A DNA stretch of 32,000 bases, taken from the NCBI RefSeq assembly GCF_000012925.1, contig NC_007517.1, forward strand, positions 2,040,001 through 2,072,000, in the 5' to 3' direction. This document shows, in pieces, positions 23,165-32,000 of the stretch; position 1 is the stretch's first letter, and the number at the start of each line of letters is the position of its first letter. The translations under genes were made by a program, and so were the position numbers. A model generated the notes under the pieces. It saw only the letters and a program-made list of their open reading frames with translations. It was not told the DNA's origin and did not search any database. The stretch comes from Geobacter metallireducens GS-15 (GTDB taxonomy: Bacteria > Desulfobacterota > Desulfuromonadia > Geobacterales > Geobacteraceae).

Positions 23165-23196
23165 CAAAAAAGCCCGCCACTGTATGGCGGGCTTTT
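23165..23196 (-). terminator. intrinsic terminator after the cohesin/dockerin repeat gene
   Basis: agcccgcc (23171..23178) / ggcgggct (23186..23193) with a 7-nt loop. The minus strand reads hairpin then TTTTTTG. 17 nt after the stop at 23213. Confidence 0.75.
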
Positions 23197-23212: not shown

Positions 23213-24898
23213 TTACTTCTTGTTCTTTTTGCCTCCGCCAGCCGTCAAGTAATTGGCGGTATATATATAGTCATCTATATAATCATGCTTTCCATCACCG
23301 TTGAGGTCATATGCCGGCACCTTGGCGGCTCCATTCTTGGAAAGGAAGAGTGAAAAGTCTCCTTCATCCGTCACACCGTTTTTGTCAACATCGACATCCA
23401 CCCTCGGAGCGACGGTTAAAGGATAATCTACAATTTTCTCCCCATTTACGATGGTAAGCGTAGCCTCAATTTTTCCTGCTTCAGGAACGGCTTCTATCAG
23501 CCATCGGTTGTCTCCCTGCTTTTGCAAGGACGTGAGGCGGGCTCCTCTCAGGGCAAAATTTGGCGCATTACTGCCGCTTTCAGGCAATTCAAGCAGGACT
23601 TTTATCATCATCTTCCCGTCAGTAATGCATATCGCAGGATCCTGCTTGATTGATGTGGCCACGGGTTCATCAAACAATGCCCTAAGAGCTTTTGGTGTCC
23701 TGTCACCCGAATAACCCTTGAATCGCTCAAGCACTCCCTTGAAAACCGCGTATTTTTGTTCCTGTACCGATGTGGTAGGGACCGTATGTGGAGAAATGGG
23801 TGCTGTTGGAGGCTGATGCTCTTTGTCCTCCCGGTCGGCAGCCTCCGGAGATGGTTGCCACTGCGCGGGTTGGTCGCCCAAAGCCGGCTCCTGTGCATCG
23901 GGCGATGTAGGTTCCAAGGGCGACTGAGGTGCGTCTGGTAAAATTATTGTACCTTGAGCTACAAACGGTATCCTGGAACCCTGCGTGTCCGCTGAACTCT
24001 TGTCCGCTGAACTCTTGTCCGCTGAACCCTTGTCCGCTGAACCCTTGTCCACTGAACCCTTGTCCACTGAACCCTTGTCCACTGAACTTGTGACTGAGGG
24101 AGCCAGACCTGAGGAAACCCTGCCCGAGGAGCCTTTGTCCGCGGGACCCGTGTCTGAGGAACTCTTGTCGGGATAATTTTCTGTGCTTGTGGAGCCTGTG
24201 TCAGTGGAACCCGTGTCAGTGGAACCCGTGTTTGTGGAACCTGTGTTTGTGGAACCTGTGTTTGTGGAACCTGTGTTTGTGGAACCTGTGTTTGTGGAAC
24301 CTGTGTTTGTGGAACCTGTGTTTGTGGAACCTGTGTTTGTGGAACCTGTGTTTGTGGAACCTGTGTTTGTGGAACCTGTGTCAGTGGAGCCTGTGTCAGT
24401 GGAGCCTGTGTTTGTGGAACCTCCCGTGCCTGAAGATAAGCCAGTATCATCTTTACCGTCTTCACTCGTCAAGGGGCTCTCAATTGGTTGATTCGATGCG
24501 TCAAGACCGGTTAACTGGCAGGTGAGCGCCGGTTTCCCCCACGACTTGCTGACTGGAGAAAATGTAACAGTTGCCACCGTGCCAGAACCGGAAACAGGCG
24601 GCTCATTGACCATGACTACCTGTACCGTTCCAGACGTTTCTACAACGTTCGGCACGAAAACCAGCCAGGTGGCTAAGTCACCACTGACGACCTTAGGGCT
24701 CGACAATGATGCCTTGTCGTAAGTGAGTGTAAAATCAATAGCGCCAACATTGATGAGGCCGAGAGCAACAACCCTGTATCTCCCGTTGCCCATATCCACC
24801 AGGTTGAGACCAGTGCAGGATGCCGCAGCATCAAAAGTCATTGGAGAAATGATTAGTTGAGCACCCAACAGAAGAAGGGAAAGGCTTTTGACTTTCAT
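23213..24898 (-). CDS. secreted modular protein: cohesin-like module, (GST[ND]T)n and (DK[GS]S[VA])n repeats, Pro-rich linker, unknown domain, dockerin-like C-terminus
   Basis: Signal peptide MKVKSLSLLLLGAQLIISPMTFDAAA. INVGAIDFTLTYDKASLSSPKVVSGDL...GSGTVATVTFSPV is cohesin-like. The C-terminal DVDKNGVTDEGD and DLNGDGKHDYID are two DxDxNG/DxNxDG Ca-loops about 24 aa apart, as in dockerins. GGAGG Shine-Dalgarno upstream of ATG 24898. Confidence 0.8.
   Translation of the reverse strand: MKVKSLSLLLLGAQLIISPMTFDAAASCTGLNLVDMGNGRYRVVALGLINVGAIDFTLTYDKASLSSPKVVSGDLATWLVFVPNVVETSGTVQVVMVNEPPVSGSGTVATVTFSPVSKSWGKPALTCQLTGLDASNQPIESPLTSEDGKDDTGLSSGTGGSTNTGSTDTGSTDTGSTNTGSTNTGSTNTGSTNTGSTNTGSTNTGSTNTGSTNTGSTNTGSTNTGSTDTGSTDTGSTSTENYPDKSSSDTGPADKGSSGRVSSGLAPSVTSSVDKGSVDKGSVDKGSADKGSADKSSADKSSADTQGSRIPFVAQGTIILPDAPQSPLEPTSPDAQEPALGDQPAQWQPSPEAADREDKEHQPPTAPISPHTVPTTSVQEQKYAVFKGVLERFKGYSGDRTPKALRALFDEPVATSIKQDPAICITDGKMMIKVLLELPESGSNAPNFALRGARLTSLQKQGDNRWLIEAVPEAGKIEATLTIVNGEKIVDYPLTVAPRVDVDVDKNGVTDEGDFSLFLSKNGAAKVPAYDLNGDGKHDYIDDYIYTANYLTAGGGKKNKK
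23987..24091. repeat. 15-bp tandem repeat, 7 units (gtccgctgaaccctt consensus), in frame within CDS 23213..24898
   Basis: Hand alignment: variants occur in consecutive pairs (gtccgctgaactctt x2, gtccgctgaaccctt x2, gtccactgaaccctt x2), followed by a degenerate seventh unit. Encodes DK(G/S)S(V/A). Confidence 0.95.
24181..24420. repeat. 15-bp tandem repeat, 16 units (ctgtgtttgtggaac consensus), in frame within CDS 23213..24898
   Basis: Hand alignment: units start every 15 bp from 24181. Nine consecutive units (24241..24375) are identical, and flanking units differ by 1-4 nt. The array encodes GST(N/D)T pentapeptides on the minus strand. Confidence 0.97.
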
Positions 24899-25149
24899 TC
24901 ACTTTCCTCCGTAAAACAGAATCGTTCAGCAGAAATCCGGGATACCATGCCAGAGGTGTGATTACGATGGCATTCATGACCTGGTATGCTGTCTGCTGAT
25001 TATTACGATTATTGCCTCAAAAATGGCCGTTTCAGAAAAACAATCACGCTAATTGACGCAATTGCAGCGACGCAACCAGGAATAGCATGAGTGGCAGAGC
25101 CTTTTGGGCCAAGATTCACCACGAAAAACAATCTCTTGATTGAGGGTAA

Positions 25150-25230: not shown

Positions 25231-25869
25231 TCAGCTGTTTGTGTGAACGGCTTTGAGGAAGGAAATGGCTTCAACGGCATCGTTGTTGCCCTCGAGTTGG
25301 TAAACCTTTTGAAGAGAAGTAAGGACTGATTCGTGAAGTCTTTCAAGTTCCGCTCGTTCAGCGCAGATATGATGATCGAAGGGCTCTTCGGGAAGGAACT
25401 CCCCAGAATATTCATCCTGAGCAGCTTCGAGATATCTCCTGGCCCCGGAGATGTCTCCACGAGCCAGCATCTTGATTCCGGTCTGAGCGTATCCTTTGAA
25501 TTGGCTCGAATCAAGGGAGAAAATATTGAAATCGAGACGGATGGCTTCACCAAGAGTCATAATGGGATTAATACTGCGCGGGCCCATAAATGACTTGCGG
25601 AGTCTGCTCAAGGTGGTTTTGAAATTCTTTGCGCCGGAGACCGGGTCACAGCCAGGCCACAACATGTCAATGAGTTTGTCTCTGTGGAGCCACTGGTCGT
25701 AGGAAATGAGCAAATAGCAGAAGAGTATCCTCGCCTTCTGGCTTTCCCATAAAATGGTCATTGGGGAATTGAGATAAGAAAGTCCCAGTCCACCGAAGGT
25801 TTTTATGGAAATCTGCTCAGGGTTGACCGATCCTTTATCAACCGTTGCACCTGAAGGCTGTGGGTTCAT
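25231..25869 (-). CDS. small SARP-type transcriptional regulator (OmpR-like winged helix plus BTAD), likely counterpart of G. sulfurreducens GSU1771
   Basis: 212 aa. ISIKTFGGLGLSY...KARILFCYLLISYDQWLHRDKLIDMLWPG...AKNFKTTLSRLRKSF is a SARP DNA-binding pattern. ARGDISGARRYLEAAQDEYSGEFLPEEPF...ERAELERLH is BTAD-like. The GSU1771 link is from synteny and memory. Confidence 0.75.
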   Translation of the reverse strand: MNPQPSGATVDKGSVNPEQISIKTFGGLGLSYLNSPMTILWESQKARILFCYLLISYDQWLHRDKLIDMLWPGCDPVSGAKNFKTTLSRLRKSFMGPRSINPIMTLGEAIRLDFNIFSLDSSQFKGYAQTGIKMLARGDISGARRYLEAAQDEYSGEFLPEEPFDHHICAERAELERLHESVLTSLQKVYQLEGNNDAVEAISFLKAVHTNS

Positions 25870-30217: not shown

Positions 30218-30640
30218 TTACCATTCTTTATACGGTTTCCCGTCAGTTCCCACCAGATCAGAACCACTATGGACATCGTAGACATTACCGGTTTCCTGTT
30301 TACCGGCGTCCGCCCCGCCAGTCGGAGCCGGGGGGGCGATAGTTTCCCAGCTGTCAGTTTTCCTGGTAAAGGGATCCGTCGGTAAACCGTGGATATATTT
30401 CTTGTCGACAAGATCTTGAAGCGTATCGGGATACTTCCCCTGGTCGGCGTAAAATTGGTCTATGCTGCTTCGGATGCTGTAGAGGTTCTCCCGCAACACT
30501 GCCTCTCTCGCCTTGATGAGGCTCCACTTGTAGCTCGGCACAGCAATGGTGGCCAGGATGCCGATGATGGTCACAACAATCATCAACTCCACAAGCGTAA
30601 AGCCTTTGCTTTTTGTTAGCATTTTTCGGAAGCTCGGCAC
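30218..30640 (-). CDS. GspG-like type II secretion pseudopilin (OxpG-like)
   Basis: Prepilin motif KSKG|FTLVELMIVVTIIGILATIAVP, then a GspG-like YADQGKYPDTLQDLV...LPTDPF region. The start is GTG 30640 (AGGA 8 nt upstream) or ATG 30622. Confidence 0.8.
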   Translation of the reverse strand: MPSFRKMLTKSKGFTLVELMIVVTIIGILATIAVPSYKWSLIKAREAVLRENLYSIRSSIDQFYADQGKYPDTLQDLVDKKYIHGLPTDPFTRKTDSWETIAPPAPTGGADAGKQETGNVYDVHSGSDLVGTDGKPYKEW

Positions 30641-30641
30641 G

Positions 30642-31157
30642 TTACCAGTCCTTGTATTTTGTCCCGTCGATGGCCGTACCCTCGCTCAGGGAATAGACGT
30701 CATACACGTCCGAATTGTCCCACGTCGTGCTATCGGGCTCGTCCTTGTAGGAACGCAGACCCCATTCGGGCTTTTCCCCTGACGCGGGACGGTTGAAGGG
30801 ATCTACGGGAATCCTCCGGAGGAACTTTTTCTTGGTCGACTTCGCTTCGCCGCCGAAATCGGTACCCGTAACCAGAACCTCCAGGGTTTCGGGATATCCT
30901 GTCTCGTTCAGGATCTGTTTCCCCTTGTGGGCGTCGTCATAGGCTTTTTTGTACTCGTCTATGGCAGTGCGGATCTCCCTGAGGGATCTGCGCAGCTCAA
31001 GCTCCTTGTTCCGCTTGACGGTCATCTGGGTAAAGGGAACTATCACTGTCGCCAGTATACCGAGAATGGTTACAGTCATTATGAGCTCAATAAAGCTCAA
31101 TCCCTTACGGTTTCGTATATACCTCACTGTCGAGACACCGATAAACTTCACGCTCAC
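30642..31157 (-). CDS. GspG-like pseudopilin paralog (171 aa as drawn; start uncertain)
   Basis: RKG|LSFIELIMTVTILGILATVIVP prepilin motif. GYPETLEVLV...IPVDPF. The C-terminus SDVYDVYSLSEGTAIDGTKYKDW parallels GNVYDVHSGSDLVGTDGKPYKEW of the neighbouring gene. The drawn GTG 31157 overlaps the upstream stop (GTGA); an internal GTG would give the leader MRYIRNRKG. Confidence 0.75.
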   Translation of the reverse strand: MSVKFIGVSTVRYIRNRKGLSFIELIMTVTILGILATVIVPFTQMTVKRNKELELRRSLREIRTAIDEYKKAYDDAHKGKQILNETGYPETLEVLVTGTDFGGEAKSTKKKFLRRIPVDPFNRPASGEKPEWGLRSYKDEPDSTTWDNSDVYDVYSLSEGTAIDGTKYKDW

Positions 31158-32000
31158 TTAACTTCGACAACCGTATTGTAGGGTACGACATCAATCGGCT
31201 TATTTGCCTGGTCAGTGAAGTTCACGCTCTGGAGGCCGAGGCTGGCCGGCCCCTTGTTCTTGGCAGTGAAGGTCGCGGTGAGGAGCGAACCGGCACCGTC
31301 GATGCCTTCGGCACCGGTTCGCGCCAATGTAATGGTCACCCTTCCCTTCGCCTTATCTACCTGGGCGTTGAAGCTGGTCGGCTTGCCATCCCGATTCAGG
31401 AACGTCCCTTCGACTGCCCCCACATAATCTATGAAAATCGGATCGTAGATAAGGACAAAGGGCGCCTTAAGGAGGCCCTTGACGTCGGAGACCCTGATCT
31501 CGACCTTGAACTGGGAGCCGAGATTCACAGCTGCCGGTGCAGATATATTAAGGCTTCCGCGCACGGCTGGCGCAGGTGCTGCAGCAACAGGGACGGCAGA
31601 CGCTGCTGCCACCGTCGCGGCAGGAGCCGCAGGAGAAGCCGGTACGGGAAGGGGCGCAACCGCCTGGGATTGCGCTGTGGACGGCGGGGCAGGCTGCTGA
31701 CCTGGAGCCGGCGCCGCCGATTGTTTGACTTCCGGGGAAGTCGTTGTCTGCGGGGCTGCCGTGGGTGCCGGACTACCGGGAACGGGTTGTAGAGGCGCAA
31801 CTCTCTGGGCAGGTGCAGAGACAGAAGCAGGAACCGGTGCAGGCGATGCTGCCGGCTGCTTGACGGTTTTGGGTTGGCCGATGGCAAACTCCGGCTCAAG
31901 CTCAAATGAAGCGAATGGTTTGACAACCGAGGGATCGTCCTCCTTGCCCGACCAGAAGGAAACAAGATCAGGCTCGGGAACGGTGACGGAACGGACCAGA
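31154..32000 (-). CDS. partial ORF (5' end outside the window): Pro/Ala-rich linker followed by a C-terminal cohesin-like module
   Basis: I translated this frame codon by codon from 31612 to 31999 and found no stop, so the track's GTG at 31612 is internal. The C-terminus LNISAPAAVNLGSQFKVEIRVSDVKGLLKAPFVLIYDPIFIDYVGAVEGTFL...GAGSLLTATFTAKNKGPASL is cohesin-like. Confidence 0.75.
   Translation of the reverse strand, partial: LVRSVTVPEPDLVSFWSGKEDDPSVVKPFASFELEPEFAIGQPKTVKQPAASPAPVPASVSAPAQRVAPLQPVPGSPAPTAAPQTTTSPEVKQSAAPAPGQQPAPPSTAQSQAVAPLPVPASPAAPAATVAAASAVPVAAAPAPAVRGSLNISAPAAVNLGSQFKVEIRVSDVKGLLKAPFVLIYDPIFIDYVGAVEGTFLNRDGKPTSFNAQVDKAKGRVTITLARTGAEGIDGAGSLLTATFTAKNKGPASLGLQSVNFTDQANKPIDVVPYNTVVEVK

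Follow-up and report, generated by a model that had tools for sequence, protein, structure and literature searches.

Among the systems described so far, the closest in build to the protein analyzed here are the monovalent adaptor scaffoldins of cellulosomes. ScaC and ScaH of Ruminococcus flavefaciens consist of one cohesin and one dockerin (see the review PMC12484212); as in the protein at hand, the dockerin-type module is C-terminal, and the chain is secreted and includes a flexible Ser/Thr/Pro-rich spacer. The role expected to be shared is the linking of a cohesin-bearing anchor to a further dockerin carrier. The second group for comparison consists of cohesin and dockerin modules outside cellulosomes, which are presented as a known kind in PMC9012536 with reference to Peer et al. 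2009 and Haimovitz et al. 2008, and which are found in other bacteria and in archaea (ANME archaea) that, like the lineage discussed here, have neither cellulose metabolism nor a multi-cohesin scaffoldin (PMC9012536). The protein in question is encoded in a 32,000-nucleotide stretch of the Geobacter metallireducens GS-15 genome (contig NC_007517.1, positions 2,040,001 to 2,072,000 of the forward strand), hereafter the window; all coordinates below are those of the window unless they follow a locus label (L with a number, for loci of relatives), and all window features described lie on its minus strand. The gene (23213..24898) encodes 561 amino acids followed by a stop codon, and the product is 100% identical to the G. 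metallireducens GS-15 protein WP_004511995.1, listed in GenBank as ABB32080.1. Judged from its sequence, WP_004511995.1 is an exported protein with a cohesin and a dockerin-like module, the order being cohesin, spacer, immunoglobulin (Ig)-like domain and dockerin-like module.

This protein departs from both groups in several respects. Unlike the adaptor scaffoldins, it belongs to a Gram-negative host that is non-cellulolytic, as the first-pass annotation had it; no set of dockerin-tagged enzymes was found in the sampled neighbourhoods or in the whole-library profile search, its dockerin is sub-threshold and is single-looped in many relatives, and the candidate anchor is the secretin of a type II secretion system (T2SS), unlike a scaffoldin attached by S-layer homology (SLH) modules or by sortase. 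Unlike the modules of Archaeoglobus fulgidus, one of which (Protein Data Bank (PDB) entry 2xdh) is the best profile and fold match of its cohesin, WP_004511995.1 is bacterial, its dockerin is joined to an Ig-like domain, and its spacer is long and contains repeats; for the A. fulgidus and other non-cellulosomal proteins, no genomic link to a secretion system has been described. The architecture is sound, the dockerin assignment is not secure, and the function proposed below is read from gene context.

The open reading frame (ORF) of 561 codons recorded in the first-pass annotation is present and coincides with the RefSeq entry WP_004511995.1 (561 amino acids), whereas GenBank ABB32080.1 (551 amino acids) starts 10 codons later, omits positions 24869-24898 and thereby cuts into the signal peptide. 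The longer form is favoured because a ribosome-binding site, GGAGG (24906..24910), can be read in the sequence 8 nt 5' of the ATG at 24898, because the long N-terminus is common to the aligned homologues, and because RefSeq agrees. Residues 1-27 (MKVKSLSLLLLGAQLIISPMTFDAAAS; 24818..24898) form a putative Sec-type signal peptide by hydrophobicity profile and composition; the earlier proposal of such a peptide agrees with the two Lys residues, the hydrophobic core and the AAAS stretch, with equivalent N-termini in all aligned homologues. A lipoprotein reading of AAAS-C28 was rejected since this Cys is missing in most family members and co-occurs with Cys136. The two residues, located in the first and the last strand of the cohesin, occur as a pair in no family members other than G. 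metallireducens and the three relatives closest to it, a distribution that suggests a clade-specific disulfide rather than a lipobox. Directly past the stop codon, the consensus scan detected an intrinsic terminator (23168..23196; a 13-bp stem with 7 G-C pairs, followed by a T run), and because of it the gene is probably not co-transcribed with the downstream yibQ-like gene. The Rfam scan of the whole window yielded no match, with no riboswitch upstream of the gene, and no NCBIfam family matches the protein.

The identification of the N-terminal module (residues about 28-140; 24479..24817) as a cohesin is solid, by profile comparison and by the predicted fold alike. When residues 1-156 are scanned alone, Pfam Cohesin (PF00963) scores 27.8 bits against a cut-off of 24.1 (E 3.2e-6), the alignment covering positions 30-105 of the 139 in the profile; when the entire repeat-rich protein is scanned, this match is not reported, and only Pentapeptide_2 and a weak Dockerin_1 match appear. 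A precomputed PF00963 match is present in 40 of the 92 listed homologues. The profile built from the 92 homologues has as its best PDB match 2xdh, the non-cellulosomal cohesin of A. fulgidus (E 2e-5), and also retrieves the cohesins 1g1k, 2vn5 and 4ums (E about 5e-4) over profile positions 40-144. The AlphaFold model of residues 24-160 is all-beta, with a predicted local distance difference test (pLDDT) score above 90 over the core. In a Foldseek search of the PDB with this model, 47 of the top 50 matches are cohesins (template modelling (TM) scores 0.43-0.59), type II cohesins being prominent among them, and the best is again 2xdh (E 1e-4, 23% identity); the complex of the ScaC cohesin, 5lxv, is among both the fold and the sequence matches of WP_004511995.1. 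Cohesins fold as a flattened beta-sandwich (jelly roll) of nine strands; for the present model, DSSP gives 6 merged elements, and with about 105 amino acids the module is short. The cohesin claimed in the first-pass annotation is accordingly upheld by Pfam, by solved cohesins and by the modelled fold, but its size was overstated, about 120 amino acids having been given for a module that measures about 105-113.

The C-terminal half begins with residues 378-498 (23405..23767), predicted by AlphaFold as two short helices followed by an Ig-like beta-sandwich (pLDDT 95-98, the highest model quality anywhere in the protein). These residues have no Pfam match, and the nearest folds to the C-terminal model in Foldseek are the Ig domains of invasin, intimin and filamin (E about 1e-3); within the family alignment, F393, F448 and P472 are invariant in this domain. 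A 120-residue region that had earlier been left as unassignable belongs to no Pfam family, indeed, but can be assigned as an Ig-like beta-sandwich through AlphaFold and Foldseek combined. Although the modules had been described as joined by linkers, none lies between this region and the dockerin: the Ig-like domain runs straight into the dockerin-like module (residues 499-552; 23243..23404), which was delimited by motif scan, AlphaFold and profile comparison with the PDB. The AlphaFold model of the 187-residue C-terminal fragment has a pLDDT of 91 and a predicted TM score (pTM) of 0.88, a value that implies a fixed arrangement of the Ig-like domain and the helices; modelled as a single rigid unit, the C-terminal half is best described as a dyad rather than as two modules on a linker. 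The X-Doc dyads of type II and type III systems (CipA of Clostridium thermocellum, PDB 2b59) likewise have an Ig-like sandwich directly N-terminal to the dockerin, without a linker, and resemble the rigid body modelled here. Unlike them, the dyad of WP_004511995.1 has no sequence similarity to X modules, and the resemblance, drawn from the model, would be one of layout only, with no homology implied.

The dockerin-like module contains two Ca loops of the pattern D-x-[DN]-x-[DN]-G-x-x-x-x-x-[DE], 12 residues long and followed by a helix (the F-hand). Loop 1 (DVDKNGVTDEGD, residues 503-514; 23357-23392) is followed by a predicted helix at residues 512-520, and loop 2 (DLNGDGKHDYID, residues 531-542; 23273-23308) by one at residues 540-552, so that both helices begin at loop position 10. 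A six-frame scan of the whole window with the EF-hand/dockerin loop pattern gave no match besides these two. The dockerin layout of two tandem loop-helix segments is found in the window protein and its close clade only. The loops had been described as spaced like those of a type I dockerin. Two loops are there, but their spacing, 28 residues from start to start, is about 6 residues shorter than in the Pfam Dockerin_1 consensus, and 40 residues of the protein are aligned to 46 profile positions. Type I dockerins of C. thermocellum carry a Ser-Thr recognition pair at positions 10-11 of each segment; here, loop 1 has E-G at these positions and loop 2 has Y-I. No pair of the Ser-Thr type is present, and any dockerin specificity would be of another kind. 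The Lys-rich tail reported at the very end of the chain is there (GGGKKNKK, within the basic tail AGGGKKNKK at 23216..23242), and Lys/Arg-rich C-terminal tails of variable length are aligned throughout the family.

Comparison with other sequences gives borderline matches of this module to dockerins. Among 48 relatives, Dockerin_1 finds 17 at E<=1, with 8.6e-5 as the best value. In the search of the PDB with the C-terminal profile, the top two matches are dockerins, 2y3n_B (E 7.7e-4) and 5lxv_B (E 1.8e-3), with alignments that reach into the helix, and EF-hand proteins come next (E 0.015). Loop 2 is canonical in about 76 of 92 family members and, together with its helix, is near-invariant across the family (DLNGDGxxDYxDDYIYTANYL), which makes it the most conserved part of a fast-evolving protein: the mean pairwise distances are 0.45 for the dockerin-like module, 0.62 for the Ig-like domain and 0.67 for the cohesin, compared with 0.21-0.40 for housekeeping neighbours. 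Overall, the dockerin call, which draws on loop motifs, profiles and the predicted helices, is weaker than the cohesin call, and 'dockerin-like' appears to be the appropriate term. The earlier comparison with a type I dockerin is justified insofar as two loop-helix motifs are found at the C-terminus, but 'type I' is too strong for a module with a sub-threshold Dockerin_1 score.

The named members of the family all belong to Geobacterales/Desulfuromonadales, and its C-terminal module is almost never found elsewhere. The first homologue search returned 92 clusters at 90% identity, all of 350-660 amino acids, with the named matches all from Geobacter, Geomonas, Oryzomonas or Desulfuromonadales. 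When a profile of the C-terminal module was run against the whole library, 452 clusters at 50% identity were found (E<=1e-10), nearly all of which are similar proteins of 400-480 amino acids with the module at the very C-terminus, and a hidden Markov model (HMM) of the module matched no other ORF in 86 sampled neighbourhoods. By these searches, the protein is essentially the sole carrier of its type of dockerin-like module, and accordingly it does not belong to an enzyme-recruiting, cellulosome-like set. One subfamily combines the Ig-dockerin dyad with no cohesin signal (L056:9908-11044, L066:9716-10792, L068:9680-10945, L075:9656-10963, and likewise L071, L076 and L086), its N-terminal region of about 100 amino acids having no match to the family HMM or to Pfam; there are 14 such members with no detectable cohesin, at least 7 of which are complete ORFs directly next to genes for FKBP and multicopper oxidase (MCO). 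Family genes are also carried by ten metagenome-assembled genome loci labelled Nitrospirota (L031, L037, L039, L048, L055, L059, L074 and L079-L081), in some of which the gene adjoins that of an OmpB-like oxidase; these could be mislabelled bins or cases of horizontal transfer.

The genomic contexts were surveyed in 80 further loci, one per species, by BLAST against the reference neighbours. In the window, the minus-strand order is the end of a secretin gene, two pseudopilin genes, ftsE, ftsX, a gene for an M23 peptidase, ctpA, a SARP/BTAD regulator gene and the gene for WP_004511995.1, which is followed, past its terminator, by a yibQ-like deacetylase gene, a parA-like gene and xseA. The order in G. 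sulfurreducens is identical, and the orthologue there is AAR35147.1, which by counting from GSU1774 (ftsX) and GSU1777 (pulG) is GSU1770. This context (class A, the pul-fts-ctpA block) is found in about 18 of the 80 loci, with 7 more that have only the yibQ-parA-xseA side. In about 21 of the 80 loci (class B), a gene for an OmpB-like, laccase-family MCO of about 1600 amino acids lies within 10 kb, usually directly adjoining and accompanied by FKBP genes; there, the family gene is often convergent with that of a T2SS-E/MshE ATPase, an arrangement that recurs in 5 more loci in which no oxidase was counted. In a rough neighbour-joining tree, classes A and B are interleaved, and some genomes hold two or three paralogues.

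The gene upstream of the pseudopilins in class A encodes the secretin of the Pul/Oxp type II secretion system. Only its C-terminal end is in the window (31154..32000), the frame being open to the window end; this part starts within the secretin domain and continues, after a Pro/Ala-rich linker of about 100 amino acids, into a cohesin (31154-31612; Pfam Cohesin, 53.3 bits). The first-pass annotation had noted a cohesin at 31154..31612, and it is indeed one, not in a small protein of its own, however, but as the C-terminal domain of the secretin. Full-length orthologues (for example, L010:1306-3822, L029:662-3106 and L007:366-2954) have 790-920 amino acids, with a lipobox, TPR, STN, Secretin_N and Secretin domains, the linker and the cohesin. 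With a full-length secretin as the query (the cohesin domain alone gave 4 fragments), PF00963 is present in at least 118 of the 120 best secretin homologues. All 16 class A loci with enough flank encode such a secretin, with the cohesin at its C-terminus, upstream of the family gene, and PF00963-bearing secretins occur also where the family gene sits elsewhere, namely, in Geomonas sp. RF6, Geobacter sp. OR-1, AOG1 and Geomobilimonas. The C-termini of GspD/PulD secretins dock a small exported partner through pilotin-binding S-domains, a possible parallel. Unlike these, the Pul secretin has a cohesin on a linker instead of a short S-domain helix and is itself a lipoprotein with TPR repeats; because it is a lipoprotein, a pilotin is probably not needed. 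Secretin C-termini (GspD S-domains) normally face the periplasmic side of the outer membrane, so that a Sec-exported WP_004511995.1 would share its compartment with the secretin cohesin and would not have to be secreted to meet it. Two translated ORFs between the secretin and ftsE, 30642-31157 (PulG-like) and 30218-30640 (OxpG-like), contain the N_methyl motif of pseudopilins. OmpB is secreted only when the Pul system, with PulG/OxpG, is functional (PMC3543383).

The reading that we favour, tentatively and as one slightly less likely than not, is that WP_004511995.1 is a monovalent, non-cellulosomal adaptor, with a dockerin-like dyad that would bind a cohesin. The near-invariant face of loop 2 and its helix would plug into a cohesin in a Ca2+-dependent manner, the best candidate receptor being the cohesin tethered to the Pul/Oxp secretin, which is encoded 6 kb upstream; a specific partnership with that particular cohesin is possible, if doubtful. 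The protein's own cohesin, kept at a distance by about 240 residues of disordered spacer, would stay free for one more ligand, either another molecule of the same protein, which would give short chains, or an OmpB-connected partner, and the whole system would be tied to the export or the cell-surface retention of an OmpB-type MCO. The adaptor reading is the most economical, with a cohesin on the Pul pore and with WP_004511995.1 as the sole carrier of the dockerin-like module; two independent gene contexts, the Pul secretion genes, on the one hand, and the gene of a Pul substrate, on the other, link the protein to one system. The recurrent neighbours point to MCO secretion rather than to a matrix. 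The arrangement of the domains, their conservation in the family, the gene contexts and the presence of a cohesin on the secretin are observed, whereas binding of a cohesin by the C-terminus, the choice of that cohesin, the compartment and the connection to OmpB are all steps that we infer.

Several observations weigh against the adaptor reading. Of the two Pfam HMMs proposed in the first-pass annotation as a check, Cohesin scores above its cut-off but Dockerin_1 (PF00404) stays below the required 22.9 bits, reaching 13.5 bits in the scan of the entire chain and 16.1 bits when the C-terminus is scanned by itself. EF-hand models match the relatives about as well as Dockerin_1 does (best for EF-hand_1, 9.7e-5), the PDB dockerin matches depend mainly on the generic Ca loop, and only about 17 of 92 relatives, the window clade included, have a canonical loop 1, which is degenerate in about 80%. 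In the model, the helices are packed on the Ig-like domain, which would allow the loops to serve as structural Ca sites, and the 50 best Foldseek matches to the C-terminal model include no X-Doc structure. With respect to the partners, a mirror-tree comparison gave partial correlations of 0.20 between the dockerin-like module and the secretin cohesin and of -0.17 between the dockerin-like module and the protein's own cohesin, values that, with 16 non-independent taxa and with neighbours controlled for, lean no more than faintly towards the secretin and are too weak to choose between partners. The class A genes lie 5-6 kb from the pul genes with ftsEX-M23-ctpA, a block conserved for other reasons, in between; the MCO-linked copies are in part paralogues of the window clade; neither a dockerin nor a cohesin was detected in the two MCOs examined; and no expression, localisation or phenotype data for the protein were found.

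The first half of these observations lends itself to a serious, if somewhat unlikely, alternative, in which there is no pairing of the two modules with partners of the complementary kind: the loops would be structural Ca2+ sites, an EF-hand-like pair, by which an Ig-like adhesin domain is stabilised, and the cohesin fold would bind some other ligand, for instance a glycan, the multicopper oxidase directly or a mineral surface. The sub-threshold Dockerin_1 score and the parity of the EF-hand models fit this scheme, as do the proximity of EF-hand Ca-binding proteins to the dockerins in the PDB search, the modelling of helices and Ig-like domain as one rigid unit, the dispensability of loop 1 in most relatives and the small size of the cohesin, with its partial coverage of the Pfam profile. 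Under it, however, the combination of a cohesin, a dockerin-like module and a second cohesin on a neighbouring secretin would be an odd coincidence; the near-invariance of the DDYIYTANYL helix in an otherwise fast-evolving protein suits a binding face better than a buried site; and the two best PDB sequence matches are dockerins.

An improbable scheme is that the protein polymerizes head to tail, the dockerin of one molecule binding the cohesin of another, to give an extracellular scaffold of a biofilm or matrix. Both modules are indeed on one chain, with about 240 residues of spacer between them, and since the protein is apparently the only carrier of its dockerin type, self-binding would make a closed system. 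The best structural match of its cohesin, 2xdh, is non-cellulosomal, and the parent protein of 2xdh reportedly has a dockerin of its own that binds its cohesin. The orthologue of the upstream regulator, GSU1771, controls biofilm thickness (PMC10599522), but GSU1770 did not turn up in the supplementary tables on the transcriptome of the gsu1771 mutant. There is, moreover, no sign that the protein leaves the periplasm, with no lipobox family-wide and no sorting signal, and the two modules fail to co-vary in the mirror-tree comparison, itself a weak test. Given the 14 Ig-dockerin members with no detectable cohesin, at least 7 of them complete ORFs by FKBP-MCO genes, the dockerin must have a partner besides the cohesin of this protein.

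The position of the gene would admit, with very low probability, a further explanation, namely, that the protein is an accessory of envelope maintenance or division that belongs to the block ftsEX - M23 (EnvC-like) - ctpA - yibQ, for instance as a substrate or adaptor of CtpA, so that the pul and MCO genes are incidental. The interval from ctpA to the yibQ-like gene is where the gene is found in the window, in G. sulfurreducens and in many relatives; in several genera it follows ctpA directly, and the spacer motif described below and the basic tail could be protease or adaptor signals. This account, however, fits the class A loci only: in about a third of the loci, the gene is elsewhere, next to MCO/FKBP or T2SS-E genes. 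Furthermore, the gene has its own terminator, and the ftsEX-envC-ctpA block occurs widely, unlike the family, which is confined to one order.

The spacer, which separates the cohesin from the dyad, consists of two parts of different composition. Residues 141-330 (23909..24478) form a low-complexity segment rich in Ser, Thr, Gly, Asp and Asn (41, 39, 30, 18 and 12, respectively, of 190 residues), with two pentapeptide arrays inside, and residues 331-377 (23768..23908) are rich in Pro, Gln, Glu and Ala by composition, in line with the Pro/Gln/Glu-rich stretch reported earlier. The first array is a 15-bp tandem repeat of 16.1 copies (24181..24422; Tandem Repeats Finder, 93% matches) that encodes GST(N/D/S)T; the 16 units claimed for GST(N/D)T are all there (residues 160-239), but by regular-expression count, 15 are GST[ND]T and one is GSTST. 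The second is a 15-bp repeat of 6.8 copies (23986..24087; Tandem Repeats Finder, 97% matches) that encodes DK(G/S)S(V/A), for which seven units had been claimed; about seven is correct, the regular-expression count being six contiguous units plus two degenerate ones. Both arrays are specific to G. metallireducens and absent from all aligned homologues, and the pLDDT of the spacer is about 50 where sampled. The tandem pentapeptides represent expansions of 15-bp units, peculiar to this species, within a disordered spacer. The linkers had been called hypervariable, which holds between species but not between the two sequenced G. metallireducens strains, GS-15 and RCH3, the proteins of which are identical.

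Between species, no alignment of residues 141-377 is possible except for one short motif at residues about 309-322 (RIPFVAQGTIILPD; 23933..23974), identified in the alignments and located outside both structure models. Its family consensus is P..LGTVxMPxD, with G316 kept in at least 90% of the members; possible roles are those of a docking strand, a processing site or a recognition site. The current database name, 'pentapeptide repeat protein', which would place the function in the repeats and which in GenBank follows from an above-cut-off match to Pfam Pentapeptide_2 (PF01469, 70.3 bits), is effectively refuted as a functional reading by the family alignment, given that the match is caused by 16 near-identical GSTNT units from a young 15-bp array, that the array is missing in every homologue, even those 54-61% identical elsewhere, that the region is of low complexity with no confident AlphaFold model, and that conservation within the family lies in the cohesin and the Ig-dockerin dyad, not in the repeats. 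The name is misleading, and its correction is due whichever functional reading holds.

The remaining observations concern the neighbours. The SARP/BTAD regulator gene (25231..25869; Pfam BTAD) is, by synteny, the orthologue of GSU1771, which in G. sulfurreducens is a repressor of genes for extracellular electron transfer and biofilm (PMC10599522). It lies between ctpA and the family gene only in Geobacter sensu stricto, and the G+C minimum of the window falls in its region (0.45 compared with 0.55-0.60), which suggests that this gene is a later insertion. The possibility of a low-GC island comprising both genes was rejected, because only the SARP gene is clade-specific, whereas the gene for WP_004511995.1 is the older resident beside ctpA. 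In Geobacter sp. OR-1, the place of the SARP gene immediately upstream is taken by a gene for a 916-residue multihaem cytochrome (L006:4776-7526) with GSu_C4xC__C2xCH and cytochrome c7-type motifs.

Several class B loci (L004:7251-7811, L005:7215-7775, L028, L036 and L062) have, between the oxidase gene and the family gene, a gene for a conserved 186-residue lipoprotein, in which a poly-Gly run comes after the lipobox. This lipoprotein has no family match and no profile similarity to WP_004511995.1, and its role as a cohesin-like anchor was rejected on an hhalign probability of 1%. The OmpB-like oxidases of Oryzomonas and Geobacter sp. AOG2 (L004:2385-7184, L005:2388-7154) have a C-terminal tail of about 70 amino acids, ...ALKALHIATG...DVAP...DGKINLLDVYAILLRSLGL, also written ...ALKALHIATG...DVAPYSNGAAKPDGKINLLDVYAILLRSLGLIATF, and the Geomonas oxidase has no tail of this type. 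A degenerate dockerin in this tail was a visual impression only and was rejected, there being no Pfam or PDB match and no match to the HMM of the dockerin-like module.

Catalogues of cohesin and dockerin modules outside cellulosomes go back more than 15 years, with hardly any functional assignments. For the Geobacter proteins, the first-pass annotation knew of no functional description, and none was found in the searchable literature (GSU1770, Gmet_1847-1852, Geobacter cohesin/dockerin), although the UniRef label of the G. sulfurreducens orthologue is already 'cohesin domain-containing'. The same searchable literature contains no account of the dockerin-like module, the Ig-dockerin dyad, the order-wide family or the association with an OmpB-like oxidase, and no description of a secretin-cohesin fusion. 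What is new here is the recognition of the protein as the sole carrier of a dockerin-like module, of the cohesin on the Pul secretin and of the repeated adjacency of the family gene with OmpB-like oxidase genes. It is conceivable, albeit unlikely, that Geobacterales have co-opted a cohesin-dockerin pair into type II secretion, such that every secretin subunit carries a cohesin on a long tether, WP_004511995.1 and its relatives plug into it by their Ig-dockerin dyads, and the cohesins of the latter capture or retain, at the pore, an OmpB-type oxidase or further molecules of the same protein. If true, this would provide a physiological role for non-cellulosomal cohesin-dockerin pairs, as well as a new accessory mechanism of secretins; should the adaptor reading fail, the family would still consist of well-defined, order-specific envelope proteins.

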